A stretch of 64,000 nt of DNA from an uncultured Acidobacteriota bacterium (GCA_963770895.1 CAVYRF010000002.1:608001-672000), one strand, 5' to 3'; positions 40,956 through 57,980 are shown, numbered from the stretch's first letter. Numbers and translations: made by a program. The notes: generated from the sequence alone by a model not told the origin.

Positions 40956-41074
40956 CGCTCTTATGTGGGCGCCACCTGACGGCGGTCAAGGAGCTCCCCA
41001 TCGCTTGGGCAGAGCCTACCGACGCCCGAGGCCAAGCGTCCACGCTTCCCTCGCTGCGCTCGGCGGCTTTGGGT

Positions 41075-42062
41075 TGATTGGCGTCCCAGGCCCAGCCGGC
41101 GAGCTGGGTGCAGCTCGGGCTGGCGAACGAACCCGAAAAGCTGGGGGGCCGTACAGGTCACGGTGCGCGTGCCGAGCGATGTCGTGGCGCCGGTGAGCAC
41201 CAGCGTCACGGCCTGAGGCGTGCCGGTCTTGAACACGGCGGACGGGGGATCGGCAAAACCGGCGAGTTTGAGGTCGTTGCGGTGCCTGGCACGACGGTGA
41301 TGGCCGCCGCCACTTCGCTGCTGCTGCTCGTTTCGCTCATTCCCTTCCTCCGTGCGGAGGGGGGGAAGCGTGGCTCGTCGCGGTGATGGTGACGGTGCCG
41401 TCGGTCGTGGGGGCGGTGAACAGGCCGGTCGCATCGATCGAACCTGCCGACGCGGACCACAGGACGCCGGTGTCGGCGGCGCCTGTCACAGTGGCGGTGA
41501 ATTGCTGCATGCCGCCAGCGGCCACCGCGGTTTCCGCCGGGGCGACGGCGATCCCGATCAGCGGGCCGGCGCTCACGGTGACCGTCGCCAAGCCCTGTAC
41601 GGGGCCGCCTCCCGCCGCGGTGGACACCGCCAGGACGTGATAGACGCCGGGGCCGGCGGGGGCGGTGTAGAGCCCCGCCGTGGTGACACTGCCGCCTGTC
41701 GAGCCTTCCTCTACGCTCCAGGTCACGGCCGGGCTGGCGACACCGCTGACCTGCGCGGTGAAGGCCTGGCTGGCGCCCGGCGCAAGGCTCGGCGACGACG
41801 GCAGGATCATCAGGTCTTCGCTGATTGGGCCGGATTCGCCGCCGCCGTGGCGGTGACGGTGTACACGCCGGGCACGGAAGGCGCGGTGAACAGACCGTTG
41901 GCCGCAATCGACGCGGCGCCCGGCGACACGGCGACTCCGCTCACCGGCATGGTGGACACGACCGTGAGCGCCGCGGTGCTGGTCGCCAGCGGGTTGCCGA
42001 CGGTCTGAACCGTGACGGTATAGGAGCCCGCGGCCGCGTTGGCCGGCACCTGGAGAAGCCCG
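41075..42062 (-). pseudogene. Internally deleted copy of Rhs gene B segments
   Basis: 41380-42062 is near-identical to 46986-47802 with ~22-nt and ~111-nt deletions; 41075-41233 is a diverged copy of ~46298-46453. Confidence 0.85.
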
Positions 42063-42134
42063 GCCAGGAGACGCTCACTGCGTGAAACTACCGCCAACTT
42101 CGCCGTCGACTTTCAACGGAAAGTGGGACATCCC

Positions 42135-42875
42135 CGCGGTCAAGCTGCATACGCTTCTGGACCTGCGCGGCGCGATTCCAACGTTCATCCTCATCAGCGA
42201 CGGCAAACTTCACGATGTGAACGTGCTCGACATCCTGCCCGTCGAGGCTGGAGCCTTCTACGTCATGGATCGCGGCTATGTCGACTTCGCGCGGCTCTAT
42301 GCGATGCATCAGACCGGAGCCTTCTTCGTCACCCGCGCCAAGCATGGAATGGCCGCCCGGCGGGTGTATTCGTTTGAGACGCAACGCGCCACTGGCGTGA
42401 TCTGCGACCAGCGCGTGATGCTCAATGGCTTCTACTCGGCCAAGGCCTACCCGGAGCATTTGCGGCGCGTCCGTTTCAAGGACCCCTTTTCGGGCAAGAC
42501 GCTTGTTTTCCTGACAAACAACACGACTTTGCCACCGTTGGCGATCGCTGCCTTGTACAAGAGCCGATGGCAGGTCGAGCTGTTTTTCAAGTGGATCAAG
42601 CAACATCTGCGCATCAAGCGATTCCTGGGCACCAGCGAGAACGCCGTGAAGACGCAAATCTGGTGCGCCGTCGCGACCTACGTGCTGATTGCCATCCTTA
42701 AGAAGGAGCTTCAACTCGATGCCTCGCTCTACACATGTCTACAGATCTTGTCGGTCTCGGTCTTCGAGAAAACCGAGGTTTCATGCGCTTTCCAGCCTGA
42801 CCGGTCCCAGCGAGAACTGCGCACTGCGGCTAACCAACTCATTCTGTTCGACTTCTAACTAACCGGACATTACTG
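42135..42875 (+). mobile_element. 5'-truncated IS4-family element (DDE transposase C-terminal part plus right end)
   Basis: AVKLHTLLDL, YVMDRGY and YKSRWQVELFFKWIKQ signature; stop at 42858 then taaccggacattactg terminus (42860-42875); no N-terminal domain or left end seen. Confidence 0.85.
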
Positions 42876-42996: not shown

Positions 42997-43356
42997 TCAG
43001 CCCCCAACGAAGATGGACCACCACGCTGGAAGTGTAGTCCACGGATAAGTTGTCGACGGGGGACCAGGCGGATGGTCCGCAAGCCATTGAAGGAATGGCA
43101 TCGGGTTCAGTAGCCGTTGCGCATCCTGCAGCAGCTGCTGCATGCGGGAGGCGCGGGGGGGGAATTTCCTGCCGTGAGCTTGCTCATCCGTTACTGGTGT
43201 TCCGTCCTTTGTGCAGCGGCGCCGTTCGTCGTTTCCGTCATCCTTGTCCCAGTGGGGGATCTTTGCGTCGCGTTCCCATGAAGCCTTGGGCGCTTTGGGG
43301 TTTTTCGGCTGATACCAATTCCCTCCTCGGGAGTTCCGCGGGTCAGGGGCCCACAT
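42997..43356 (-). CDS. Orphan polymorphic toxin C-terminal fragment
   Basis: WAPDPRNSRGGNWY..ASW..PHWDKDDG..AHG; HWD motif as in Ntox37-like tips; located in the Rhs array. Confidence 0.6.
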   Translation of the reverse strand: MWAPDPRNSRGGNWYQPKNPKAPKASWERDAKIPHWDKDDGNDERRRCTKDGTPVTDEQAHGRKFPPRASRMQQLLQDAQRLLNPMPFLQWLADHPPGPPSTTYPWTTLPAWWSIFVGG

Positions 43357-43418
43357 GAATGGACGATCAGGCTCCCACGGCCATCCTCCTGCCAGACCCG
43401 GAGGCAGTCCATCGGGGC

Positions 43419-43808
43419 CTACCTCCGGGCAAAACCGCCAGGGATGCTTTCGAATCGATGAAAGTCAAAGCCACAAAGCACACGGCGGAAGCCGTCCGTG
43501 AGCGCAGCCCCGTACACCTCCAGTCTACGAGCAACGGGATGTTGGCCATATCCGCCATGATGCATGTCGATCGGTGCTACCATACCTGCACCCAGCACAT
43601 CAGGGGAACGAAGCTGTGAGTTGTCGAAGGTCGTCACTTCCCGTCCCTCGGCCCTCAGCCGTCGTACGACGGGACCATTGGTCTCCGAATTCACAACCCA
43701 TACCGGCGCGCGAGAGGCCAGCGCCACGAGACCCTCGCCGAACTCGTGGTCGAGAACCAAGGCTACCGTGGACGATGCATGAGTGGGCATCATGATATCC
43801 ATGCTCAA
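43419..43808 (-). CDS. Probable orphan immunity protein
   Basis: ~125-aa lower-GC globular ORF (VALVLD.EFG, PVWVV, DMHHG.Y) within the Rhs cassette array. Confidence 0.55.
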   Translation of the reverse strand: MSMDIMMPTHASSTVALVLDHEFGEGLVALASRAPVWVVNSETNGPVVRRLRAEGREVTTFDNSQLRSPDVLGAGMVAPIDMHHGGYGQHPVARRLEVYGAALTDGFRRVLCGFDFHRFESIPGGFARR

Positions 43809-43955: not shown

Positions 43956-44202
43956 CGCCGGCACCACGGCGACGTCAAGCGGGCGACTCGCTGACGAGCG
44001 CGCCGACGACCAGCACGCCGCGGCCGCCATTCTGGCCCGCGCCGCCGATACCGCTCCCGCCGAGCTGGCACTGCCCGATGGGTGCCGCATCCGCCCCCAG
44101 GCGGACGACCTCGACCGCCAGTGCCGCCTGCTCCCGCCGACCGGGCCGCCCACCAAGGCCCACCGCCTGGATTGTCGTCTGGCTCGACAATCCATCCGAT
44201 CC

Positions 44203-44865
44203 TCACCTATGCCGGCGGCGCTCGCGCGGGCTCCCGGCGCGAGCGGACGGGCCGCGAGGTGGGTGCTGGTGCTGACGACGATGGAGTAAGTGTGCCAGGC
44301 GTTCTTTGGTGCGCCGTTCCTTTCGCTTCGGCATCCGCTCCCACCAAGCGACCACGGCTTTCAAAGCGGGCGTCAGCCGCCGCAGAGCACGTACAAACCA
44401 GAGCAGCGGTAATCTAATCGGGCGCAGGTACCTGAATCGCCGTCGCACGTAGATCCTACCGAGTTGGTCGCGCCAGATATTTGCCACAACCTCTGTCGGT
44501 CGCGGATCGGGCTCGATGGCGAGTTGAATGTGGTGTCCGACCTCGTGGTAAAGGATGTTGACGATCACAAGCTCACGGAATAGAGGCAGTTTCTGTAGAA
44601 AGCCAGGAATGGTTGCCGTAATAGCATCGAGGTTCAGTTCGATGTACGCTTTTCTTCCTTTCCAAGCGCGCCAATAAAGCCCACGCGGCTCCGTTCCGCG
44701 CGAGATCGCAGGCCATATATCCTTAAAGGCAGCTGTATCCTTGAGACACACTCGGTCCAGGCCCTCAAGGTATTCTGGCGGTACAAACCGCAATAAACGT
44801 TCGACGGTGGCGCGATAATCCGCCCGCGGATTGAGCCAGCGGAACTCTTCAAGCACCTGGACCAT
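44203..44865 (-). CDS. HEXXH zinc-metallopeptidase-like protein in the cognate immunity position
   Basis: RGLY, YIEL, ILYHEVGHH and a downstream E (EVVAN); first ORF after Rhs gene B; lower GC. Confidence 0.7.
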   Translation of the reverse strand: MVQVLEEFRWLNPRADYRATVERLLRFVPPEYLEGLDRVCLKDTAAFKDIWPAISRGTEPRGLYWRAWKGRKAYIELNLDAITATIPGFLQKLPLFRELVIVNILYHEVGHHIQLAIEPDPRPTEVVANIWRDQLGRIYVRRRFRYLRPIRLPLLWFVRALRRLTPALKAVVAWWERMPKRKERRTKERLAHLLHRRQHQHPPRGPSARAGSPRERRRHR

Positions 44866-45031
44866 CGCTCTATCGTCTCACGGCCAAATCGTTAAAGGAA
44901 GAATGGCATTCGTCACAGCCACTTGGCTGCCGCGACGTGGGTGGCAAGACTGCGCGAGAGCGGTCCAGGAGCGGTTCTTCGGCGGCCCACAGGGGTATCG
45001 AGCTACCTTTCCTCAAGCCTGGACCAGCTCT

Positions 45032-48000
45032 TCATCCGCCGAAGCCTCCGTGCCCTGATCCATAGTGCTCCACGAGGTAATGGAGGAAGCGCTCCAGACT
45101 CTCCATCAGTGCCTCCCACCATGGGTCTGGCTCCGGACCGCCCGGGAAATTGCCCGGCGCCGTCTCGAGCAGGGGCGGTGGATTCGTTTTCGGCCTCTGC
45201 CCCGGATTGGATTTGGGCGGCGGGCATCCCCTGCCCGGCGCGACCGGCCGGTCGCGCGGTCGAACTGTGGGGATTGGCAACGGCGCAATCGGAAGGTCAT
45301 GCAGCCATTGTTTGCCGGCAGGGGTGTTGAGCCACCCTTCGTAGGCAAGGACAGCGAATGTCAGCGCTGTAAGCGCAACTACGGGAAGTACTAGGGCGCT
45401 TTCACCCTTCGGGTCGATGCTGTTGAGGGGATCGTTGCCGACATAGTGGTAGAGGTTCAGCCCCGCCATCTCGCCGACCGGATCGCGGCTTTCCCAGCGC
45501 CCCAGGTTCGGGTCGTAGGCGCGGTATTCGGTCAGGCTCAAACCCGACGGTTGGTGGTAGTACATCCCGGCGTACCCGAAGCGGGGCGGAACACCCTGGT
45601 TGACGGTCAGGCGCCCGTAGGGGTCGTAGTCGTAGCGGCTGACGACGTTGCCGCTCGTATCGGTGACTTCGCGCACGCTGCCCAGATGGTCGTAGGAGAA
45701 GTAGTAACTGCCGCCGCCGGACTGCATGCCTCCCGGGAAGAAGCGGGTGAGGATCGGCTCGGTGGGGCAGGTGATGGTCTTGGGGGTATCTCCCAGGGGG
45801 ATGGTGGTGCCGGAGTAGGTGACGGACAGGCTGTGGGTGGTGCCGGAGTAGAGGGCTGGCGAGGTGTAGGTGAAGCCGTGGTCGCCATTGCCCTTGCCGG
45901 CGTTTTGCAGGTCCTGGCGGAAGTTGGCGGCGGGGATGGTGGCGAGCAGGGCGCCGTTGTCGTAGATGTCCACGTTGAGGGCTGCGTTGGGTTGGTTGGC
46001 GTCCCAGGCCCAGCCGGCGAGCTGAGTGCAATCGGCAGTGTCGAAGTACCCGCCGAAGTTAGCGCTGGAACAGATGAGCGTTTGCGGGACGCCGATGACC
46101 GTCGGCGTGCCGCCGGCTTTGAGGGTGATGGTGTGGGCGGTGCCGGTCTTGAGGGCGGCGGGGGTGGGGAAGAAGAAGCCGTGGGCGCCGTTGCCGATGC
46201 CGGCGTTGAGCAGGTCCTGGCGGAAGGTGTTGGCCAGGACGGTGGCGATCAGGGTGGCGCCGTCGTAGATGTCGACGTTGATCGGGTCGTTGGGTTCGTT
46301 GGCGTCCCAGGCCCAACCGGCGAGCTGGGTGCAGCTGGGGCTGGCGAACGAGCCCGAAAAGCTGGGCGCGGTGCAGGTCACGGTGCGGGTGCCGAGCGAC
46401 GTCGTGGTGCCGGTGAGCAGCAGGGTCACGGCCTGCGCGGCGCCGGTCTTGAACTGCGCGGGCAAGGGATAGGTAAAACCGTGGTTGCCGTTGCCGGCGC
46501 CGGCGAGCTTGAGGTCGCTGCGGTAGTTGTTGGCCAGCACCGTTGCCTCGCTGGTCGTGCCGGACTCGATGCTGACGCTGACCGGCGTGTTCGGTTGGGC
46601 GGGATTCCACGCCCAACCGGCCACCTGGTTGCAGTTGAGGCTGTCGAAGTTGCCAGGCGCGGTGACCGCTCCGGTCGGATCGACGGTGGCGTCCGTCTCT
46701 TCGACGATCTGGCCTTCCACCCAGATGTAGTGACGGCTGCTCACCACGGCGCCGTTGTTCAGCTCGGTGATGAGCACGCGCCGACCCAGGCCGTCGTAGG
46801 CGAACTGGCTGCGCTGGGCGCCGATGTTGATCGCGGTCAGGCGGTTTTCCGCATCCCATTCGTAGGTGCGGGTGCCGTCGGACAGCAGATTGCCGTTGGC
46901 ATCGTATTGGAACGCCTGCCCCTGGCCGGGAACGGTGACGACCGCGGTTGCCGAGGCCTGGACCTGCGGGTCGGCGTGACTCGCGGCGGTGATGGTGACG
47001 GTGCCGTCGGTCGTGGGGGCCGTGAACAGGCCGGTCGCGTCGATCGAACCTGCCGACGCGGACCACAGGACGCCGGTGTCGGCGGCGCCTGTCACAGTGG
47101 CGGTGAATTGCTGCATGCCGCCAGCGGCCACCGCGGTTTCCGCCGGGGCGACGGCGATCCCGATCAGCGGGCCGGCGCTCACGGTGACCGTCGCCAAGCC
47201 CTGTACGGGGCCGCCTCCCGCCGCGGTGGACACCGCCAGGACGTGATAGACGCCGGGGCCGGCGGGGGCGGTGTAGAGCCCAGCCGTGGTGATACTGCCG
47301 CCTGTCGAGCCTTCCTCTACGCTCCAGGTCACGGCCGGGCTGGCGACACCGCTGACCTGCGCGGTGAAGGCCTGGCTGGCGCCCGGCGCAAGGCTCGGCG
47401 ACGACGGCAGGATCATCAGGTCTTCGCCCACCGTCACCGTGGCGGTGCCTGATTGGGCCGGATTCGCCGCCGCCGTGGCGGTGACGGTGTACACGCCGGG
47501 CACGGAAGGCGCGGTGAACAGACCGTTGGCCGCAATCGACGCGGCGCCCGGACCGGCAACCGACCAGGTGACTGCCTGGTTGGGATGCGGCTCACCGTTG
47601 GGGTCTTCCACCACCGCCGTGAAGGGCTCCTGCTGCCCCGAATCGATCACCGAGCGCGACGGCGACACGGCGACTCCGCTCACCGGCATGGTGGACACGA
47701 CCGTGAGCGCCGCGGTGCTGGTCGCCAGCGGGTTGCCGACGGTCTGAACCGTGACGGTATAGGAGCCCGCGGCCGCGTTGGCCGGCACCTGGAGAAGCCC
47801 GGTGCTCGAAAAGGTAGCTCCCGGCAACGTCGAGGACCACTGCACGCTCTGCTGGCTGCCGGTCACGTCGGCAAAGAATTGCCGCGAGGTCCCAGGCAGG
47901 ACGGTCACGGCCGCCGGCGCCACGGCGACGTCGACCACCTGCACGGTCGCGGTGGCCTGGATGCCATAGGCACCATCTCCGTTGTTGACGACGTAGACGT

Positions 48001-48562
48001 GAAACGTTCCTCCTGTCCGACCCACGACGTGGCTGAACTGACCGATGGGGCCAGTTCCCGCGCCCCCGCCGCCCTCGACGGTACCGCTGGGGTCGTCCGT
48101 GCTCCAAAAGAAGTATGGAGAGTCCGAGTTGATCACGCTGGCGGAGAACGAGGCCGCCTGGCCGGCGGCGATCAGGGCTGTCAACGGGGTCACCGACGTA
48201 AGCGGGGGCCCCGGGACGGTGATGTTCAAATACCCCGCACCGTTGTTACTGGTGATGGCGGTCAGGGTGTACACGCCGGGCGTCGTGCCTGCGGTGACGT
48301 CGATCGATGTCGTCCCGGGTTCGTTCAAGGTGACACCCGCCGGCGGATATACCGACCAGGTGACCACGGTCCCGGTGGGATAAGGATAGACCGACGCGTT
48401 GTAGATCATGGATTCGCCTTGATACAAGGTGGTCGGCCCGCTTACCGTGACGCTGGTCTGCGCACGGACCGGGCGTAGCCCGCCGGTAACCAGGACAACA
48501 CCCGCAAACGCGAGCGGCAGCAGCCGGCCGCGGACGGTTCCCAGCCGACGGTCAGTTTTCAT
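45032..48562 (-). CDS. Rhs gene B: signal peptide, Ig-like domains, YD repeats, three inserted repeats, Rhs core, C-terminal tip
   Basis: Signal ..LRPVRA|Q; repeated VTWS..G.I...GLFTAP...G.Y.V.A; YDANGNLLSDG; DHLGSVR, YDPYG and RDPVG..DPKGE. Confidence 0.92.
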   Translation of the reverse strand: MKTDRRLGTVRGRLLPLAFAGVVLVTGGLRPVRAQTSVTVSGPTTLYQGESMIYNASVYPYPTGTVVTWSVYPPAGVTLNEPGTTSIDVTAGTTPGVYTLTAITSNNGAGYLNITVPGPPLTSVTPLTALIAAGQAASFSASVINSDSPYFFWSTDDPSGTVEGGGGAGTGPIGQFSHVVGRTGGTFHVYVVNNGDGAYGIQATATVQVVDVAVAPAAVTVLPGTSRQFFADVTGSQQSVQWSSTLPGATFSSTGLLQVPANAAAGSYTVTVQTVGNPLATSTAALTVVSTMPVSGVAVSPSRSVIDSGQQEPFTAVVEDPNGEPHPNQAVTWSVAGPGAASIAANGLFTAPSVPGVYTVTATAAANPAQSGTATVTVGEDLMILPSSPSLAPGASQAFTAQVSGVASPAVTWSVEEGSTGGSITTAGLYTAPAGPGVYHVLAVSTAAGGGPVQGLATVTVSAGPLIGIAVAPAETAVAAGGMQQFTATVTGAADTGVLWSASAGSIDATGLFTAPTTDGTVTITAASHADPQVQASATAVVTVPGQGQAFQYDANGNLLSDGTRTYEWDAENRLTAINIGAQRSQFAYDGLGRRVLITELNNGAVVSSRHYIWVEGQIVEETDATVDPTGAVTAPGNFDSLNCNQVAGWAWNPAQPNTPVSVSIESGTTSEATVLANNYRSDLKLAGAGNGNHGFTYPLPAQFKTGAAQAVTLLLTGTTTSLGTRTVTCTAPSFSGSFASPSCTQLAGWAWDANEPNDPINVDIYDGATLIATVLANTFRQDLLNAGIGNGAHGFFFPTPAALKTGTAHTITLKAGGTPTVIGVPQTLICSSANFGGYFDTADCTQLAGWAWDANQPNAALNVDIYDNGALLATIPAANFRQDLQNAGKGNGDHGFTYTSPALYSGTTHSLSVTYSGTTIPLGDTPKTITCPTEPILTRFFPGGMQSGGGSYYFSYDHLGSVREVTDTSGNVVSRYDYDPYGRLTVNQGVPPRFGYAGMYYHQPSGLSLTEYRAYDPNLGRWESRDPVGEMAGLNLYHYVGNDPLNSIDPKGESALVLPVVALTALTFAVLAYEGWLNTPAGKQWLHDLPIAPLPIPTVRPRDRPVAPGRGCPPPKSNPGQRPKTNPPPLLETAPGNFPGGPEPDPWWEALMESLERFLHYLVEHYGSGHGGFGG

Positions 48563-51500
48563 GACCGCCCCCGTTGACGTTGCCTGGAGCTCCCGGCGCT
48601 CCGGCTGGACTTCGCGGCGGCGCCGCCGGCCGGCGGGCGCGCAGCTGCTGCATCGCCGCCTGCGCCTGCAAGCTGAGGCCGGAGTCGAGCGTGAGCAGCT
48701 GATTGGCGCCGTCGTAGGTCGCGGTCGAAAGAGCCGTGTCGATGGTCTCGCTGGTGCGGTTGCCCGACGGGTCGTAGCCGGCCGCGTAGGTGTGCAGCGT
48801 CGTCACCGGCGACTGCGCCGGGTTGGTCGTCTGCTGCCGCGCGATCAGCTGCTGGGCGCCGTCGTAGGTGAAATTGAAGAACCGCCCCGTCGGGTTGTCG
48901 ATATCGAACCAGGAGAGGCCGACGATCTGTTGGTGAGCAGGATCATAGGAGTAGCCGAACTGCGACAGGTTGGGGCCGTTCGCCGTGGAACCCCAGACCA
49001 CCCGCGACAACCGGAAGTCTTGCGTCGGGCCAAGATACGAGTACGTCGCTCCCTGGCCGTTGGGATAGGACAGCGAGGCCATCCGGTTGGACGATCCGAC
49101 GTAGGTCGCGGTAAACGTGCCCAGCGGGCTCGCCAGGGTCGTCAGACGATCCTCGCTGTCATAGGTCCGCGTCTGCGCCACGCCATCGACCGTCTGGCCG
49201 ATGCGCCGGCCGTCGACGTCGTACTGGAAGGTGATCGTGTGATTGGGGGCCGGCGCGGTGATGCTTGCGATCTGCCCCGCACCGACGCTGCCCGCGAGGT
49301 TGTAACTGTAGAGCGTCGAACCGAACGCATCGGTCATCATCGTCAGGCGCGGATAGTACTGGTCGTAGAAATACTGCACGCCGGGCGTCGCGTGCACGCT
49401 GTTCTGATAGGTGATCGCCGCCAACCGGTTGTCGACGGTATAGCTGTAGTTGGTGACCTGGCCCACCCCGTCGGTGCGCCGGATCAACCGGCCGGCGGCG
49501 TCGTAGGCAAAGAGCGCCACCGTGGCGCCGTTGACCTGCTTGCCGACCACGCGGTTGAGGCCGTCGAGCATCCAGGTAGTCAGGGAACCGCGCGGGTCTG
49601 CCACCTGCGACAGCGCGCCACAGCCGCACCAGGAATAGGTCGTGGTTCTGCCTGCCGGGTCGGTGACCGAAGCCAGGCGATCGGCGGCGTCGTAGGCGTA
49701 GGTGGTGATCCGTCCCATGCGGTCCTGGTAGGCCACGACATCCAGCTTGTTGAACACCACCTGGTCCATCGTGCCGTCCGGATAGGTGATCTGCGTGAGG
49801 CGATCCAGCGAGTCGTAGTTGAACGTCAAGGTGTAGCCGTCGGTCGACGTCCAGGTCAGCAGCCGATTGGCGGAGTCGTAGGTGTAGGTCTCCTGGTAGG
49901 TGGTCCCGGCGATCGCTTTCTGGATCAGAAAGCCCCGGCTGTCGTAGGTGTAGTTCGTGGTCACCCCATCCGGCCGCTGCGCGGAAGTCATCTCGCCCAG
50001 GCTGTTATAGGTGAACGTCGACCGCTGGCCCGCGTAGTCGACGTAGGTGAGCGGCTCATGCACCGAGTTGTAGGTCAAGGCGGCCAGCTGCTCGCCGGCC
50101 CACGTGATGCCGGTGCCGCCGCCATCCAACTGCGCGGCCAGCACCTTGATCAGATCGATCTGGTTGGCCGCATACAAATAGTTATAGCTGCGGCCCGCCG
50201 GGTCGGCAGAGGTCGGCAGCCGGCCCGATGAATCGTAGCTGGAGGTGGTTGCCTGGGTCTGGCCGGTGTCGAGCACCGTCGCCGTGACGGTCGGTGTCGA
50301 AAGGCTGCCCTGGTCGCTGTCGCCGGGCATGTTGGGATAGTTCATCCAGGTGCGGCGCTCCCCTTGCGGCTGGACAAACCCCGGAATCGAAGACGCCGCC
50401 GTTCCGCCTTCCGAAAAGTCGCGCAGCCAGTGGATGGTGAAGGTTGCGTTGAGATATCGATTGGGATCGGCGGCGCTGTATTGCTCCATCGCCGTCGGGT
50501 TCCAATAGTAGGTATTGCGATACGCCAGGTTTTCGTTGCCGAAGCCGGCGGGGATCGGCTCGGTGGTGGTCTCTGGAACGTTCTGCGCTTCGTGGGTGAA
50601 CTCGATCCGCTCCTGGTGGCCAAGCGGGTCGGTCGCCACCAGCCAGCGGATGTTGCCCAGGTCGGTTTCGACGCACGGCGGCGCTTCCCCCATCGCGAAC
50701 GTCGTCGTGCCGTAGGGAGTGGTCATCGCGTTCATGAAATCCGCCGGCACGGCGTACACGATGTCGTTGCCGCTGTTCACGCAATAGGGCGGCGCCGGCG
50801 CTGGCACGGTGGGACCGTAGGTAAACGACGACGTCATGCCGGCGGCGTCGGTGACACTCTGCAGCTCGCCGCCGGAATACTGGAATAGCGCCTGGCGCCC
50901 AAACGGGTCGGTGACCGCGGTGACCTTGTACATGTCGCCCGCCAATCCATAGGTGAGCGTCGTCGTCTGGCCCAGCGGATCGGTGATCGACAGCAGGCGC
51001 GTGGTCGCGGCGTCGTAGTTGAGAGTGACCGTATTGCCCACCGCATCCGTCACCGCCGTCAGGTAGTACTTGCGCATCGTGGCGGCATTGTCCGAAAGCT
51101 GATAGGTGTCCTGCGAACCGTCGGGATACTGCCGCACGAAGCCGACGGTGTTGTTCGCACCCGTCTGGAACAGGCGCGTCACCGTGTCGTGCGCGCCGCT
51201 CACGTTGGGGCCATACGCCCACCAATAGACGGCCGAAATCTGCGACAGGATGTACGAGCCGCCGCCGCGCTCGGCGACGCGGATGGTGTTGCCGTTGCCG
51301 TTGGGGTCGTCGTCTTCGACGTAGGAGAGCCAGTCGAAGTTCCAGCGCGAGCCCAGGTTGGTATAGGTGAACGTGGCCGGCTGAAAGTCCTCGCGGCTGT
51401 TGTAGGTGATGCCGAACCGCATCGCCGGTCCGCGCGGCGGTTGGTAGCCGACCGGAGAGTCGGTGACGTTCAAGCTCACCACCGCGGTGTGAAAGTTGTA

Positions 51501-52644
51501 GACCGGCATGCCGACGCCATTGCCGCCGCACAGCGCCGGCTTCTTGGGGTCGGCCGGCGTGGTCGCTCCCGGGTTGGGGTTGGCGCTGGCGCCCCGCCCG
51601 CGCACCGCGGCCGCCTCCGCGGGCGCCACCGCACGCCACCCCTCCGGCAGCGGCTTTCCAGACCGGGCAAGCAGATAGCCGGAGGACTCCTCCTCCACGG
51701 CGGCGCGGCTCAGCCAGCGGTTGTCGCCGAACGTCATGTCCTTGACCAGGTAGCGGCTCCCCTGCTGCGCGACGAGCGCCGCGAAGTGGCCGGCCTTCCA
51801 ATGCACCACCGCCGGCACCGGGATGGGAGACCCAGCCTGGCGTTGGAACGCCTGCAGGTCCAAGCCGGTCGCCTGGGCGAGCTGCGCCATCTCCTCCAGC
51901 GAGGTGCCCTGGCCCGTCGAGCGGTAGCGCAGCACCCGCGGATCGGCGGCGGCGCCCGGATGCAGCACCGCGGCGACCCGCTCGATGGCCAGGGGGCCGC
52001 AGCGGAAGGAGCTGCCCGGATCGTGGCGCATCTGCCACAGGCTCGACCGCGCGCCGGAAACGATCTCCGCGGCGTGACCGCGCAGGGGGGCGGCTCCGCA
52101 CCGCGTCGAGCAGAGCCGCCAGCTCCTCCGTGCGGCCCAGGGCGGAGGTGATCTCGACGCGGGTCGCCAGCGCCGCGTCGGCAACCTTCATCGCCTCGGG
52201 CTCCCCAGACGTCGCGGTCAGCCGCCAGGCATCTTCGGCCGCGGCAAGAGCGCGATCCAGGTAGCCGGTGTGGCGATAGAGCACCGCCAGGTTGGCGAGG
52301 AGCGACGGCTTCCAGGCCGAATCTGGATGTCGCGTCAGGAACGCGAGGATCGGCCCCACCGCCTCGACGTCCGCCGCGGCGCGATAGGCGAGGATCGCCG
52401 CCGCCAGCTCGCGGGTCTCCGCCGCGTCCGGCGCCCCGACGGCGACCAGCGGCTCGGCAAAGGTTCTCCCCTCCTCCGGCCGCTCCACCATGGGCACCGC
52501 GGCGGTCTGGCAGCCACTACCAACTGCCATGGCCACCCCGGCGCCGCCCCCCGGCCCCCCGCCGGCCTGCGCCGACCCCGGAAACGTCAAACCGATCGCT
52601 ACCGCCACCGCCACAACACCCACGACGCCGAGGCACAGTCGCAT
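48552..52644 (-). CDS. Rhs gene A: signal peptide, helical domain, C39-like peptidase, YD-repeat shell (frameshift at G6 run 52085-52090)
   Basis: ATG 52644 with GGAGGGAG RBS; joining frames gives ..VRSRPLRGH..; FRCGP / HWKAGHF / VKD; many YD repeats; no Rhs core motif. Confidence 0.85.
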
Positions 52645-52951
52645 CCCTGACTCCCTCCTTCCGCAGCGCACCTGTCGCACAGAGCGAGGTCGACCGGCGG
52701 GGCCGGCCCCTTGCCGCAACGACGCGCCATCTCAACGGCGACTTAGAATTAATACCGTACATCTGTATATACGGGAGACAAGCACATTCCGTTGCACACT
52801 GTGTGCTTGACAAGGCTGTGACACGGCCGGCGAGCGGTGGACGGCGGCGCCGGGCTCCGGGCACGGGGCGCCGGACGTGAAGACGGCCAGCCCGGAAAGC
52901 CGGATCGGCCGCGAGGGCGCTGGCAATTCCAACCGGGGGTTGGGACGGGCT

Positions 52952-53875
52952 TCAGGAGGCGGCGACGACGACTTTGCCGGCGCGGCCGGGGACTTCTCCC
53001 CAGGCCAGGTCGCCGCGGCCGGCGCCGGGCTTGGCTTCGCGGGCTAGATCGCTCACCGGGTGGGTGGCGATGCCCAGGTCGCGGTGTCGCTTGAGGAGCT
53101 GCTGGAAGAGACCGCGGTGGGCCAGGCCCTCGGTTTCGGCGTGGACGGTCAGGACCTCGCAGTGCCCCGGCCGGTAGCGGGCCACCAGGCGGTCGACGTA
53201 ATTGTCGACGGTGATGCCGTCGCGGCCCAGGTCTTCGTCCAGGGTGGACAGGGTGGTGGGGATTTCCAGGGTGCCCAGGAGGCGGCCGCCGACGCGAGGG
53301 AAGAAGGGAGGGGCGGTGCCGCGCGAGACCGACAGGTAGTCGAAGCCGCGGGCGTCCAGGGCCTCAAAGGCGGCTTCGGTGCAGAACCAGGCGGGGGCGG
53401 CAAAGCTCCTGGGCGGGGCGCCGAAGATCTGGGCGAAAGTGGCGATGCCGCGGTCCAGCTGGGCTTCGATTGCGGCCCGCGGCAGCCGTTCCAGACGGTC
53501 CTGCCAGGTGACGTGATCCCAGGCGTGCAGGCCCACCTCATGGCCGGCGGCGGCGACGGCGGCAAGGGTCGCGGCGCAGCGGCGGCAGATGAGGGGCGCC
53601 GGCAGCAGGGTGCCGTAGAGGGCGGTGCGCCAGCCGTACATGCGGGCGGCGTTGGTGCGCAGCATCTTGGCCAGGAAGCCGCGCTTGCGGAAGACGCGCA
53701 ACACGGCGCGGCCTGAGTTGTCAGGCCCCAGGGTGAAATAGAAGCTGGCGCGGACGCCCGCGGCGGCCAGGTCGGCGAGCAGGGCCGGGACGCCGTCGCG
53801 GGTGCCGCGGAAGGTGTCGACGTCGATCTTGAGCGCCACGCGCGGCGGCGGCGGGGTGGCGGCAACGGGCGCCAT
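52952..53875 (-). CDS. arnD: ArnD-like deformylase (polysaccharide deacetylase fold)
   Basis: LKIDVDTFRGT, GPDNSGRA, LYGTLLP, HEVGLHAWDH and TVHAETEG. Confidence 0.88.
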   Translation of the reverse strand: MAPVAATPPPPRVALKIDVDTFRGTRDGVPALLADLAAAGVRASFYFTLGPDNSGRAVLRVFRKRGFLAKMLRTNAARMYGWRTALYGTLLPAPLICRRCAATLAAVAAAGHEVGLHAWDHVTWQDRLERLPRAAIEAQLDRGIATFAQIFGAPPRSFAAPAWFCTEAAFEALDARGFDYLSVSRGTAPPFFPRVGGRLLGTLEIPTTLSTLDEDLGRDGITVDNYVDRLVARYRPGHCEVLTVHAETEGLAHRGLFQQLLKRHRDLGIATHPVSDLAREAKPGAGRGDLAWGEVPGRAGKVVVAAS

Positions 53876-53895
53876 CGCTCGATCGCCCCCTGGGG

Positions 53896-54876
53896 TCAGG
53901 GGAGCCGCGGCCCCCAATCGGCCGTCGAACGGAACCATTCGATGGTCTTGCGCAGGCCCTCTTCGAGCGGCACCTTGGGTTCGACGCCGAGAATCGTGCG
54001 CATGCGGGTGATGTCGGGGAAGCGGCGCGGGATGTCTTCGTACGAAGGCCCGTAGATCTGTTCCTGGCGCACCAGGGTGATCTTCGAGCCGGTGCCCGGA
54101 AAGGCGCGGATCATGGCTTCGGCCAGCTCCAGGATGGTGGTTTCGCGGTCGCTGCCGATGTTGAAGATCTTGCCGGTGGCTTCGGGCAGGGTGCCGGCGC
54201 GCACCAGGGCCGCCACCGCGTCGTCGACGTAGGTGAAGGCGCGGGTCTGCTTGCCGTCGCCGATCACCGTCAGGTCCTCGCCGCGCAGCAGCTGGCCCAT
54301 GAAGATGGTGATGACGCGGCCGACGTCGATGCGGTCCAGGCGCGGGCCGTAGGCGTTGAAGAAGCGCACGATGACCACCGGCAGGCCCAGCTTGCCGTAG
54401 GCAAAGCAGAAGTGCTCGCCGACCGCCTTCGACGTCGAATAGCACCAGCGGTCGATCTCGGTCGAGCCGAGCAGGCGGTCGCCGTCTTCGCGGAACGGCG
54501 TGTCGCGCGACTTGCCGTAGACCTCCGAAGTCGACGCGAAGACCAGCCGCCGGTCGTAGCGGTGGGCCAGCTTGAGCACGGTCTGGGTGCCGTTGACGTT
54601 GATGTTGAGGACGTGCAGCGGGTCCTCGACGTAGTGCTCCACCCCGACCACGGCGGCCAGGTGATAGATCAGGTCGGCCTTGGCGACAAAGTTTTCCAAC
54701 AGGTCGGCCTCCAGCACCGACCCCTTGATATAGCGAAACGCCGGGTTGGCAAGGTTGTGGCGCACCTTGAGATCCGGCGCCGTATCGATCGCCGTGACCT
54801 CATGGCCCGCGGCGAGCAGGCCGTCGCCCAGGTGCGAACCGAGAAAACCGCCGCCTCCGGTAATCAGAACTCTCAT
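53896..54876 (-). CDS. NAD-dependent epimerase/decarboxylase (ArnA C-terminal-like)
   Basis: TGGGGFLG, STSEVYG, RWCYSTSK, RFFNAYGPR and QTRAFTY. Confidence 0.85.
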   Translation of the reverse strand: MRVLITGGGGFLGSHLGDGLLAAGHEVTAIDTAPDLKVRHNLANPAFRYIKGSVLEADLLENFVAKADLIYHLAAVVGVEHYVEDPLHVLNINVNGTQTVLKLAHRYDRRLVFASTSEVYGKSRDTPFREDGDRLLGSTEIDRWCYSTSKAVGEHFCFAYGKLGLPVVIVRFFNAYGPRLDRIDVGRVITIFMGQLLRGEDLTVIGDGKQTRAFTYVDDAVAALVRAGTLPEATGKIFNIGSDRETTILELAEAMIRAFPGTGSKITLVRQEQIYGPSYEDIPRRFPDITRMRTILGVEPKVPLEEGLRKTIEWFRSTADWGPRLP

Positions 54877-54889
54877 GGTCCAGCCTCTT

Positions 54890-55807
54890 TCAAGTGTCGT
54901 GTGTCGTGACCAGTGGCGCCGGCGGCGGCACACCCGCGAGCCCTTCCGCCGCCAGCACCTCGAACCAACGATCCGCCGTTGCGATCCATACCCGGCCCGC
55001 GTCGCGGCGGATGGTTCCCGGCGGCGGCGCCGGCACGCCGCCCAAACCCAGCGGCTCGCCCGGCGCTCCTGCGTACACCGCAACCCTGCACCCTTCGACG
55101 TCGCCGAAGGCACCGGGCCAGGGCGGCGCCACCGCCCGCACCAGGCAGTCGATCCGCGCCGCCGGCCAGGACCAGTCGATCGCCCCATCCTGGGGACCGC
55201 GCCGCCCGAAATAGCTGGCGCGCGATTCGTCCTGCTCCACCCGCGGCGCGGTGCCGGCGGCAACCCGCGGCAGCATCTCGGCCAGCAGGTCCACGCCCGC
55301 GGCTTCCATCTTGCGGTAGAGCGACAGCGCCGTCTCGCGCGGCGCGATCGCGATGGCGCGCTGGCCGACGACGTCGCCGGCGTCGGCGCGCCCGATCATA
55401 TGATGGAGGGTGATCCCGGTCTGCCGCTCCCCCTGCACCAGCACCCAATTGATCGGCGCCCTGCCGCGATAGGCGGGCAGCAGCGACGGGTGGAGGTTGA
55501 GCGCCGCCACGCGCGCCGCCGCCAGCAGGCGCCGCGGCAGCATGTCGCGATAGAACACCGACAGCGCCAGGTCGGGCGCCAGCTGCTCGGCGAACGCGGC
55601 GATGCCGCCGGGCGCCGCCGCCAGCTCGTCGGAGTAGTGCAGCGGCAGGCCCAGCTCGGCCGCCGCCTCGGCAGGGGTGCGATACCAGCGCCGCTCGGCC
55701 GGGTCGTCGCGATGCGTCACCACCGCCGCCACCTGCCAGCCCAACCCGGCCAGCAGCTTGACCGCGCGATAGCCCAGCTGGCTGTAGCCCAGGAAGAGGA
55801 CCTTCAA
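54890..55807 (-). CDS. Formyltransferase (ArnA N-terminal-like)
   Basis: THRDDP, NLHPSLLPAYRGRAPINW, ADAGD, YFGRRGPQDG and PWPGA. Confidence 0.88.
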   Translation of the reverse strand: MKVLFLGYSQLGYRAVKLLAGLGWQVAAVVTHRDDPAERRWYRTPAEAAAELGLPLHYSDELAAAPGGIAAFAEQLAPDLALSVFYRDMLPRRLLAAARVAALNLHPSLLPAYRGRAPINWVLVQGERQTGITLHHMIGRADAGDVVGQRAIAIAPRETALSLYRKMEAAGVDLLAEMLPRVAAGTAPRVEQDESRASYFGRRGPQDGAIDWSWPAARIDCLVRAVAPPWPGAFGDVEGCRVAVYAGAPGEPLGLGGVPAPPPGTIRRDAGRVWIATADRWFEVLAAEGLAGVPPPAPLVTTHDT

Positions 55808-56814
55808 GCGCCCCCGCCCGCCGGCGGCGCCACCGCCGGCGGCCCCAGGTTGATCGTCTCCTTGACCACGCTGCGTGGCCGCCGCCGCACCTCGACGTAG
55901 ATGCGGCCGACGTATTCGCCCAGCACGCCGAGCGCCAGGAAGTCCGCCCCCACCAGCAGGAACAGGATGGCGAACAGCGTGAAGAGCCCCTCCGCTTCGG
56001 GGCCGTGGATCAGCCGCCGCACCCCCAGGAAAACGCCGAAACCGATCGACACCAGCGAGATGAGCGTGCCGATCAGCGTCGCCAGGCGCAGCGGCAGCGA
56101 CGTGAAGCCGGTCACCAGGTCGGTCTGCAGCCGCAACAGCCGCCACAGGGAGTACTTCGATTCGCCGGCGGCGCGCGCCGCGTGCCCCACCGGCACCTCG
56201 GCGATGCGGTTGGCGAACTGGCAGGCCAGCGCCGGGATGAACGGCGTCCGCTCTTCGCACCGCCGCAACGATTCCACCACGCCGCGCGAATAGGCGCGCA
56301 GCATGCAGCCGTAATCGCGAAACTCGACCCCCGCCATGACGCGGCGCATCATGCGGTTCACCTGCCGCGAAGCAAAGCGGCGGAACCAGCTGTCCTGCCG
56401 CAGCTCGCGCCAGCCGCCGACGATGTCGAAGCCTTCGGCCGCCTTGGCGAGCAGCTTGGGGATGTCTTCGGGCGGGTTCTGCAGGTCGGCGTCCAGGGTC
56501 ACCACGGTGTCGCCGCGGGTCACCTCGAACCCGGCCATCACCGCCGCGTGCTGGCCATAGTTGCGGTTGAAGGAGATCACCCGCACCCGCGGGTCGCGCG
56601 CCGCGAAGCCGCGCATCAATTCAAGAGAAGCGTCGGCGCTGCCGTCGTCGACGAAGATCACCTCGGCGCCGCCGCCCGCCGCCGCGATCGCATCCATGAC
56701 CGGCGCCAGCCGCGCGTAGAGCGCCGGCAAGTTGGCCGCTTCGTTCCACACCGGGATGACGATCGACGCCGTGGGCGGCCGCGGCGCCGGCGCGGCCGTC
56801 GGCGGCGCGCTCAT
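55804..56814 (-). CDS. arnC: Undecaprenyl-phosphate glycosyltransferase (GT2)
   Basis: IPVWNE, VDDGS, RNYGQHAA, DADLQNPP, DYGCMLRAY and two C-terminal TM helices. Confidence 0.88.
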   Translation of the reverse strand: MSAPPTAAPAPRPPTASIVIPVWNEAANLPALYARLAPVMDAIAAAGGGAEVIFVDDGSADASLELMRGFAARDPRVRVISFNRNYGQHAAVMAGFEVTRGDTVVTLDADLQNPPEDIPKLLAKAAEGFDIVGGWRELRQDSWFRRFASRQVNRMMRRVMAGVEFRDYGCMLRAYSRGVVESLRRCEERTPFIPALACQFANRIAEVPVGHAARAAGESKYSLWRLLRLQTDLVTGFTSLPLRLATLIGTLISLVSIGFGVFLGVRRLIHGPEAEGLFTLFAILFLLVGADFLALGVLGEYVGRIYVEVRRRPRSVVKETINLGPPAVAPPAGGGA

Positions 56815-57980
56815 GCGACCATCGCCTGGCGCACCGCCGCCACCACGTCGCCGGCATCGTCGTCGGTCATCGACGGGAAGAGCGGCAGCGAGACGATGCG
56901 CGAGCAGACCTTTTCGGCCACCGGCAGCGCCCCCGGCGCCCAACCGAAGCGCCGGCGGTAGTAGTCGTGCAGGTGCACCGCTTCAAAGTGCAGGCCGGTG
57001 CCGATGCCCAGCTGGCGCAGCCGCTCCATGAACGGCGCCCGCTCGGGCGGCAGCACCGCGAACAGGTGCCAGGGGTGCACCTGCGGGTAGGCGGCGACCC
57101 CCGGCAGCTCGAGCCCGGCGATGCCCGCGAGCTCGCGCCGGTAGATCGCCGCCAGCTCCGCCCGCCGCCGGTTGAAACGTTCCAGCTTGCGCAGCTGGTG
57201 GATCCCCAGCGCCGCATGCAGGTCGGTCAGGTTGTACTTGAAGCCTGGCAGCACCACGTCGTACGACGCCGGCGCCTTTTCGGCCGCCGAGTACGCCTTC
57301 CAGGCGTCGCGCTGCACGCCATGGAAGCGCCACAGCTTGAGCTGTGCCGCCAGCTGGTCGTCGTCGGTCGTCACCATGCCGCCTTCGCCCGTGGTCATGT
57401 TCTTGATCGGATGGAACGAAAAGCAGGCCGCCCGCGTGCCGTGGGCCGCCGTGTCGCCGATCGGGCGCCCCTTGTAGACCGCGCCGGCGGCGTGCGCCGC
57501 GTCCTCGACGATGCCGACGTCGGGCCGCCCGGCCGCCGCCAGCGCTTGCCGCAAGGCGTCCAGGTCGCACGGCTGGCCGGCAAAGTGCACCGGCACCACC
57601 AGGCGCGTGCGCTCGCTCACCGCCGCCGCCAGCGCCGCCGGATCCAGGTTCCAGGTCACCGGGTCGATGTCGGCGAACACCGGCACCGCCCCGCACGCCA
57701 CCGCCATGCTGGCCGTCGCCGGCCAGGTGAGCGCCGGCACCACCACTTCGTCGCCGGCCCCCAGCCCGAGCGCTAAATAAGTGGCGTGCAGCGCCCCGGT
57801 GCACGACGAAAACGCCAGCGCGTGGCGCGCCCCGGTCGCCGCCGCAAAGTCGCCTTCCAGCCGCGCCACCCGCGGGCCGCTGGTGATCCACCCCGAACGC
57901 AGGCAGTCCACCACCTCGGCAATCTCGTCGTCATCGATCTCGGGCCGGGAGAACGGCAGAATGGGGTCGCGCGGCAGCAC
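56811..57980 (-). CDS. arnB: UDP-4-amino-4-deoxy-L-arabinose aminotransferase (DegT family)
   Basis: LPFSRP, SGWITSGP, EDAAHA, FSFHPIKNMTTGEGG and SLPLFP. Confidence 0.88.
   Translation of the reverse strand: MLPRDPILPFSRPEIDDDEIAEVVDCLRSGWITSGPRVARLEGDFAAATGARHALAFSSCTGALHATYLALGLGAGDEVVVPALTWPATASMAVACGAVPVFADIDPVTWNLDPAALAAAVSERTRLVVPVHFAGQPCDLDALRQALAAAGRPDVGIVEDAAHAAGAVYKGRPIGDTAAHGTRAACFSFHPIKNMTTGEGGMVTTDDDQLAAQLKLWRFHGVQRDAWKAYSAAEKAPASYDVVLPGFKYNLTDLHAALGIHQLRKLERFNRRRAELAAIYRRELAGIAGLELPGVAAYPQVHPWHLFAVLPPERAPFMERLRQLGIGTGLHFEAVHLHDYYRRRFGWAPGALPVAEKVCSRIVSLPLFPSMTDDDAGDVVAAVRQAMVA

Follow-up and report, generated by a model that had tools for sequence, protein, structure and literature searches.

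Rhs proteins are in general single chains, and outside the Tc toxins Rhs containers are treated as polypeptides that fold round their own toxin in the cytoplasm. Here, we describe an Rhs system that is divided over two genes, found in a 64,000-nucleotide (nt) stretch of DNA from an uncultured Acidobacteriota bacterium from soil (GCA_963770895.1 CAVYRF010000002.1:608001-672000; the whole stretch is hereafter called the window), the genome of which is 8.16 Mb and 95% complete. Gene A encodes a long shell of YD repeats, and gene B, which overlaps its end, encodes the remaining repeats, the Rhs core and a variable tip. At the level of the genes the finding is solid: comparison of paralogous and related loci indicates that the split is real, conserved and old. 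The best explanation of the pair is, in our judgement, probably a two-gene polymorphic toxin exported by the Sec pathway, in which the A and B proteins would assemble into one container after export. If they do assemble, closure of the barrel and loading of the cargo would become possible in trans, after export, and the order of folding, cleavage and loading would be open to experiment.

Both genes lie on the minus strand, as do all features given below with coordinates unless stated otherwise. In window coordinates, gene A runs from 52644 to 48552 and gene B (45032..48562; 1176 amino acids, aa) from 48562 to 45032, which agrees with the two-gene layout that the initial annotation had proposed for 45032-52644. 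The two overlap by 11 nt (48552..48562), given that the stop codon of A occupies 48552-48554 and so ends 11 nt inside B, the start of which is at 48562; this overlap, too, had been read correctly. The parts of gene A are, in order, a signal-like N-terminus, a TPR-like domain, a C39-like peptidase and a YD shell, with no match to the Rhs core. Gene B opens with a signal-like N-terminus of its own, followed by six immunoglobulin-like (Ig-like) domains, YD repeats, a triple insert, further YD repeats with the Rhs core, and the variable tip. The domain content that the initial annotation had assigned is borne out on both sides, by Pfam, NCBIfam and the translation for A (signal-like N-terminus, helical domain, C39-like peptidase and a long YD array with no core) and by Pfam, TIGR03696 and a hydrophobicity heuristic for B (a signal-peptide-like start, Ig domains, resumed YD repeats, core and tip). 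Shell and core, which an Rhs protein carries on one polypeptide, are here on two open reading frames (ORFs) in differing frames, at 13 of 13 loci.

These 13 loci (the window, L021-L029 and L054-L056) comprise all those of the split type for which 3 kb or more of downstream sequence is available; L053 and L057 ended too early and were left out. In every one of the 13, B follows A in another frame. They span three genomes of the host family and three of a distant family of the same phylum. The host genome itself holds seven A genes, which are 100, 96, 95, 84, 71, 64 and 65% identical to the A of the window, and the B genes beside them are 100, 91, 86, 80, 64, 60 and 62% identical to its B, with the same rank order as A. 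In the distant family (L054-L056), A is ~37% identical and stops after its last YD repeat, and the next gene, in another frame, starts with a signal-like segment and goes on to Ig domains and the core. Of 41 related genomes searched, the host's own being one of them, four had an A match; one of these belongs to the same genus, and another, from a different genus, has two copies. Their open A frames all end at the same place. The family's N-terminal module was present in 14 of 401 sampled genomes of the phylum. The length of the overlap varies: it is 11 nt in the window, L021-L023 and L024 (the last counted manually) and 4 nt in L025, L027 and L029 as well as, by manual count, in L026 and L028, and in L054 a manual count gives a gap in place of an overlap. 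The comparison of split and fused forms in related genomes that the initial annotation had suggested thus returned the same A/B break in the paralogues and in a distant family alike.

A FastTree phylogeny was built from 111 of the best 120 matches (nine rows were dropped, namely seven fragments, the chimera-like P0017 and P0100). In this tree, 30 of the 31 short A forms make up one pure clade with a support of 0.953, whereas the odd one, P0081, stands beside a long form; because the short forms are grouped in this way, the split is taken, on these sequences, to have arisen once. The midpoint root falls between the short-form clade and the rest, and hence the tree gives one change and not its direction. 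We infer that the single chain is ancestral, since Rhs proteins generally are single chains.

The relation to one-chain proteins is direct. Database searches with an intact paralogue of A as the query returned close relatives of 1280-1390 aa without a core and distant relatives of 1500-1930 aa with core and tip, the latter being 35-40% identical over ~93% of A. One of the one-chain proteins, P0026, is collinear with the pair: A 69-1342 corresponds to P0026 83-1319, B 476-626 to P0026 1303-1456 and B 937-1053 to P0026 1459-1576. At the junction, the last alignable residues of A and the last Ig domain of B meet within ~5 residues of P0026, and this last Ig domain aligns to the single Ig-like insert of P0026. 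Both anchors were present in 58 of 82 long homologues, of which 50 carry an insert of 66-81 aa (one Ig-like domain) at the cut and 8 carry none. The alignments hence place the cut in a surface loop between two YD repeats, which was already tolerant of an inserted domain given that 50 of 58 one-chain homologues have an Ig-like insert there, and to which the split forms appear to have added a signal peptide and five further Ig domains.

The closest relatives are single-chain signal-TPR-C39-Rhs proteins, exemplified by P0106 of Halothiobacillus neapolitanus and P0111 of Ralstonia syzygii, both of which are annotated as 'RHS repeat-associated core domain-containing protein' and have no family name. 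They have the same order of parts, are homologous over all of A and over the YD and core regions of B, and share the signal-like N-terminus and the Cys, His and Asp of the C39 domain. However, they consist of one polypeptide of 1500-1930 aa with zero or one Ig-like insert at the cut, whereas the pair is spread over two genes and carries a further signal, as many as six Ig-like domains, and the triple insert. One-chain forms are common in Verrucomicrobiota, Acidobacteriota and Proteobacteria, and by its sequence the A/B pair is a split form of them. A script-based classification of the best 80 of 464 species-representative loci gave 54 one-chain loci and 16 that run off the contig. The same split was found in two (L063, uncultured Acidobacteriota; L072, Holophagaceae), and two more have the same stop position with little downstream sequence (L065, Geothrix; L087, Acidobacteria). 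Another two are short with no core found (L139, L140), and four have irregular breaks at other positions (L077, L080, L107, L128). In these four loci, which carry Verrucomicrobiota or Gammaproteobacteria titles, the core follows 800-2250 nt later in another frame.

Gene A begins with a 27-aa signal-peptide-like N-terminus that ends in S-A-Q-A, as read from the translation (52564..52644). The TPR-like helical domain follows in the first reading frame (52091..52563) and rests on AlphaFold models together with fold and sequence matches. In the model of the first ~390 mature residues of an intact paralogue (pLDDT, the predicted local distance difference test, 84.2), helical repeats are followed by an alpha/beta domain; the helices at 54-218 have a pLDDT >90, and the helical part has TPR-type fold matches and a CTPR sequence match. 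The C39-like cysteine peptidase domain (51663..52001) matches PF03412 with 28.3 bits (cut-off 22), and all 43 sequences compared keep its Cys62, His133 and Asp149 (ORF numbering). The double-glycine protease of PDB entry 6mpz is matched by the A sequence (E 1e-4) and is also the best fold match of the alpha/beta domain, with a target-normalized template-modelling score (TMt) of 0.56-0.59, a root-mean-square deviation of 3.3-3.5 A and a Foldseek E of only 5e-3. Profile, residues and model together place the predicted peptidase domain among the papain-like C39 peptidases with a Cys/His/Asp triad.

The YD-repeat shell of A comprises ~950 aa (48672..51512; RHS_repeat, 168.4 bits) and has no Rhs core; the NCBIfam model Rhs_assc_core did not match the intact paralogue of A. 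AlphaFold with a 48-sequence alignment gave a shell model of residues 180-1210 with a mean pLDDT of 86.5 and a predicted template-modelling score (pTM) of 0.81, in which beta hairpins extend to ORF residue 1171 and are followed by a single helix and then a disordered tail. Foldseek matches this model to solved Rhs cocoons (8qjc, E 1.7e-43; Tse15, with a query-normalized score, TMq, of 0.61; RhsA) and more weakly to teneurins and TcdB2-TccC3. In the model, A on its own folds as an Rhs cocoon, with the long YD array predicted to form the beta wall. The C-terminal tail (48555..48671) is modelled as one helix (model residues 993-1005) and a disordered, basic stretch rich in Pro and Ala (pLDDT <50 at 1010-1031). 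A ends 41 residues past its last YD repeat, with a tail that cannot be aligned to the single-chain homologues.

The N-terminus of gene B (34 aa, 48461..48562) was called signal-peptide-like by the hydrophobicity heuristic: five Lys or Arg precede a 12-residue hydrophobic stretch with a mean Kyte-Doolittle value of 2.68, and V-R-A stands before Gln35. The six Ig-like domains (Big_2-type, ~85 aa each; 46928..48460) were assigned from Pfam Big_2, Big_1 and I-set, with borders taken from the translation; on B as a whole, Pfam matches Big_2 and RHS_repeat and, below its threshold, RHS. The shell is then resumed by the first YD repeats (46658..46921), which start at about residue 548, give a YD_repeat_2x match at residues 569-599 and are 38% identical to P0026 past the cut site. 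A triple tandem insert of ~100-aa units interrupts the core region (45740..46657). An alignment of 22 such units has a mean column identity of 63%, with GWAW, R-x-D, GNGxHGF and two Cys invariant; the unit has no sequence relative in Pfam or PDB, and the B of L054 is without the triple insert. Proteins annotated as matrixin (P0146, P0162) share 49-52% identity over ~28% of the length of B, possibly through the insert unit.

The last YD repeats and the Rhs-associated core with its PxxxxDPxG motif occupy 45401..45739. TIGR03696 (Rhs_assc_core) matches B residues 979-1053 with 76.5 bits (cut-off 32.5), and D1050 and G1053 of the motif are invariant in 27 sequences, so that the predicted autoproteolysis site of an Rhs core is found on B. 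Where residues 941-1053 align to solved shells, it is at their C-terminal ends only, for example to residues 1039-1151 of 1152 in RhsP (8h8a), and likewise in RhsA, TccC3 and YenC2. The accessible text of PMC8765631 describes a conserved C-terminal Rhs region of ~14 repeats that spirals into the cocoon and seals one end, with the aspartyl autoprotease situated in this sealing region. Given that the YD-plus-core part of B amounts to only ~220 residues when the insert is excluded, we take A to be the barrel minus its seal, and B to provide approximately that seal together with the cargo, on the combined evidence of alignments and model.

The beginning of B looks like that of a separately exported protein. 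Across seven of seven junctions, the B N-terminus has a hydrophobic stretch (best 12-residue mean Kyte-Doolittle 1.9-3.0) and a small-x-small motif, and in six of the seven there are 4-5 Lys or Arg before the hydrophobic window. All seven also have a G-rich stretch 5-9 nt upstream of the B start, a putative ribosome-binding site in the last codons of A. Because signal-like N-terminus and G-rich site occur together at every junction, B appears to start translation independently. Many split-type A tails (window 48555-48575; P0001-P0023) end in x-(E/K/Q)-G-G-x-x, and since the G-rich site of B overlies the last codons of A, the conservation of x-G-G-x-x is probably a by-product of the ribosome-binding site. 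The invariant Cys pairs in the insert units and a C-x-C motif that is nearly invariant in A homologues would fit folding outside the cytoplasm.

Neither PAAR (PF05488) nor the sheath protein VipB/TssC (PF05943) of a T6SS (type VI secretion system) had a match in the 8.16-Mb, 95%-complete genome, and both controls matched in E. coli. A search of the genome for TcA-type VRP1 also found no match, but the control matched nowhere and the search is hence uninformative. The initial annotation had noted no PAAR, VgrG or TcA gene in the window; for PAAR this holds genome-wide, whereas for TcA the silent control leaves the remark where it was. T6SS Rhs effectors are recognized by a PAAR, VgrG or prePAAR N-terminus and by a T6SS in the same genome, and the PAAR and sheath searches, in which VgrG was not included, point to neither.

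Under the reading of a Sec-exported two-gene toxin, A and B would be co-transcribed and translationally coupled, Sec would export each by way of a cleavable signal of its own, and the two would fold together outside the cytoplasm. We infer that they assemble. A would be a barrel left open, with one of its ends taken up by the TPR/C39 module, and the YD repeats and core of B would supply the rest of the wall and close the opposite end. By cutting after PxxxxDPxG, the core would leave a tip of 120-220 aa enclosed, while the six Ig-like domains and the triple insert of B would project outward where the cut lies and serve as a stalk or for binding. Diversity would reside in the B tip and would be supplied by orphan tips downstream, and delivery would proceed without a T6SS. 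More tentatively, and as a possibility that we would not yet bet on, the cocoon might be both built and loaded outside the cytoplasm, with the A barrel closed in trans by a B that is plug, cargo and stalk in one, and with the C39-like peptidase of A acting as a gate or release device at the other end. If so, it would be, as far as we know, the first case of an Rhs toxin enclosed, after translocation, by a chain other than the main shell chain.

The most serious competitor is that A and B are neighbours that work separately, B being an Ig-stalked, Sec-exported toxin carrier that needs no barrel and A an empty shell or a peptidase-bearing surface protein with a role of its own. B does have its own export signal and many domains of a surface type, and orphan B fragments occur without A. 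We nevertheless consider separate function rather unlikely: in all 13 loci the genes stay side by side and overlap, even where identity is as low as 37%, A and B together equal one chain, and the two diverge in parallel. A has no core match, and the ~220 YD residues of B would be too few to enclose a tip of 120-220 aa. Less still speaks for a programmed ribosomal frameshift that would yield one A-B chain at the overlap. The genes do overlap in different frames, but overlaps of 11 nt and 4 nt give different frame offsets and would need different shifts, L054 has a gap in place of an overlap, and the first 30-40 residues of B, conserved and signal-like, would be buried in the middle of the chain. 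A frameshift of this kind is therefore very improbable, and it was rejected on the two overlap geometries. It is scarcely credible that the two genes are a single ORF broken near 48560, be it as an artefact of sequencing or as a pseudogene of recent origin. The A of the window does have one frame change elsewhere, in a homopolymer run, and one-chain homologues in other phyla do show irregular breaks (L077, L080, L107, L128). The latter, however, lie at varied positions and have no Ig array, and are likely frameshifted one-chain genes or assembly errors. At the A/B junction, by contrast, the break recurs unchanged in the seven paralogues and in other genomes, together with a start codon for B, its G-rich site and its signal-like N-terminus, one-chain forms have nothing that corresponds to the A tail past the last YD repeat, and the short forms are one old clade. 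An error at the junction, which the initial annotation had named as what would overturn its reading, was thus rejected on the recurrence of the break in 13 loci. Proteins of 2406-5000 aa likewise yielded no close fusion of full-length A and B (the best were 32-35% identical), which is weak evidence in the same direction.

Several observations weigh against a Sec-exported pair that assembles into one container. The signal peptides were called by a simple heuristic, a Kyte-Doolittle window plus a motif, and the tree is midpoint-rooted and uses short and long labels given by protein length alone. The insert of B, 295 aa long, falls inside the region expected to seal the barrel. A periplasmic complex would still have to leave a two-membrane cell and reach its target. 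A metagenome protein of 1905 aa, P0017, fuses A to B in frame through a deletion: it follows A to about residue 1160 and B from about residue 335, with the signal and first Ig domains of B removed, and it is also short of ~170 residues within A. P0017 may be a natural re-fusion or a misassembly of repeats, and separate chains are perhaps not obligatory.

The state of individual copies points the same way. As the initial annotation had hinted in speaking of a frameshift-corrected A, the A of the window is read in two frames, 52644..~52090 and ~52087..48552, the change falling in a homopolymer run at 52085..52090, at the equivalent of which the paralogues keep one frame. Contigs from public runs that cover 52085-52090 differ from the window by one base in length in three of three cases; two of these carry the diagnostic substitutions of the 96%-identical paralogue and the third has other substitutions, and hence they do not represent the window copy. 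No public sequencing run held half or more of the sampled window words, and there was no RNA run among the matches. The frame change is either an assembly error or a real lesion, and the window copy may be out of service. A second copy, L026 on another contig of the same genome, is deleted across the A/B junction, with the last ~140 residues of A and the first ~120 to 240 of B lost, including the signal and the first Ig domain. Given these two cases, two of the seven copies in the host genome look damaged.

The Tc toxins offer a comparison at the level of gene layout. In TcB-TcC pairs such as TcdB2-TccC3 and YenB-YenC2, two chains form one Rhs cocoon, with the cargo and the aspartyl autoprotease on the second chain (PMC8765631, accessible text). 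By analogy, the layout of A and B fits a two-chain cocoon with the cargo on the second chain, and the core of B aligns to TccC3, TccC2 and YenC2. However, the Tc cut lies elsewhere: TccC2 residues 269-427 align inside A (profile positions 1126-1263), which puts the cut described here several hundred residues further along the shell. As the positions of the breaks differ, the TcB/TcC and A/B splits are independent. Moreover, A has no SpvB, beta-propeller or TcA-type Pfam match, and the pair differs from Tc in its signal-like N-termini on both chains and in the C39-like domain on A; we know of no Tc subunit that carries a Sec signal. The likeness to TcB/TcC that the initial annotation drew hence survives as an analogy of layout and fails at the position of the cut.

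The best structural matches to the A shell are T6SS Rhs effectors (RhsA, Tse5, Tse15, RhsP and the Tre23 carrier), which share the PxxxxDPxG core motif and a variable tip. Unlike the pair, for which PAAR and sheath had no match, these effectors consist of one chain that bears PAAR, VgrG or clade domains, and a T6SS delivers them. WapA-type Rhs proteins of Gram-positive bacteria, which the initial annotation had named, resemble the system proposed here in having a signal peptide at the N-terminus and in being exported with no injection apparatus (compare PMC12704120). They are single chains as well; the Acidobacteriota hosts here have two membranes. A literature search by full-text phrases and by the titles and abstracts of the papers listed, with supplements outside its scope (for example that of PMC3482391, which may list architectures), found no two-gene Rhs system described. 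The comparison draws attention to C39-bearing, Sec-exported Rhs proteins of soil phyla, a widespread, little-studied group with no link to a T6SS.

Identity between B paralogues ends at residues ~1053-1068, and beyond this point the tips measure 122-218 aa. The nine tips that were compared all differ, and a tenth (L026) is a near-copy of that of L025; Pfam gave no match on nine B tips. By comparison with the paralogues, the variable tip of the window B comprises 122 aa (45035..45400), with a hydrophobic helix, a Pro-rich stretch and a short helical end, and is the presumed cargo. The hydrophobic helix comes directly after the core, and the best PDB sequence match of this tip is mosquito SGS1 (8fjp), the alignment to which continues from the core into a similar hydrophobic stretch.

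B is followed downstream by, in this order, a 220-aa ORF that contains an HExxH motif, a 129-aa ORF, an orphan tip, an element resembling an insertion sequence (IS) and a remnant of another B. The HExxH ORF (44203..44865) is a possible immunity or accessory gene; it had no Pfam or NCBIfam match, one 45%-identical copy stands downstream of another B, and the ESM Atlas clusters nearest to it consist of unnamed Acidobacteriota proteins (score 0.96). The 129-aa ORF (43419..43808), 86.5% identical to an ORF directly behind an orphan B fragment in L022, is a candidate immunity gene of an orphan module. The orphan toxin-tip module (42997..43428) is 58% identical over 95 aa to the tip of a B of the same genus (L027; E 5.7e-26). 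ORFs are thus present behind tips, and none belongs to a known immunity family. The array is interrupted by the IS-like element (42088..42714, strand not assigned), which has three more copies at 99% identity elsewhere on the same contig and is probably an insertion sequence. The B remnant (41020..42064) is frameshifted and consists of the Ig part and pieces of the triple insert, recovered by tblastn in three frames and up to 97% identical to B residues 378-532. Judged by its sequence, this region is a usual Rhs orphan array, made of B parts only.

The initial annotation had regarded B as an exchangeable module. That only the tip varies, and that orphan B fragments and tips lie downstream, agrees with exchange, but the parallel divergence of A and B across paralogues does not, and because of it matched A-B pairs are suggested rather than free exchange of whole B genes. 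Such a pair would offer a route for the evolution of polymorphic toxins in which a large shell is conserved while a smaller gene with a variable tip, the only part seen as orphans, diversifies.

Scans of 44000-53200 were uninformative for promoters (no promoter-like site) as well as for terminators (8 terminator-like sites against 4.4 expected). Upstream of A, an Arn-like cluster on the minus strand (window 52952-57980) encodes a polysaccharide deacetylase, an epimerase/dehydratase, a formyltransferase, a GT2 glycosyltransferase and a DegT-type aminotransferase, and is apparently unrelated to the Rhs pair.

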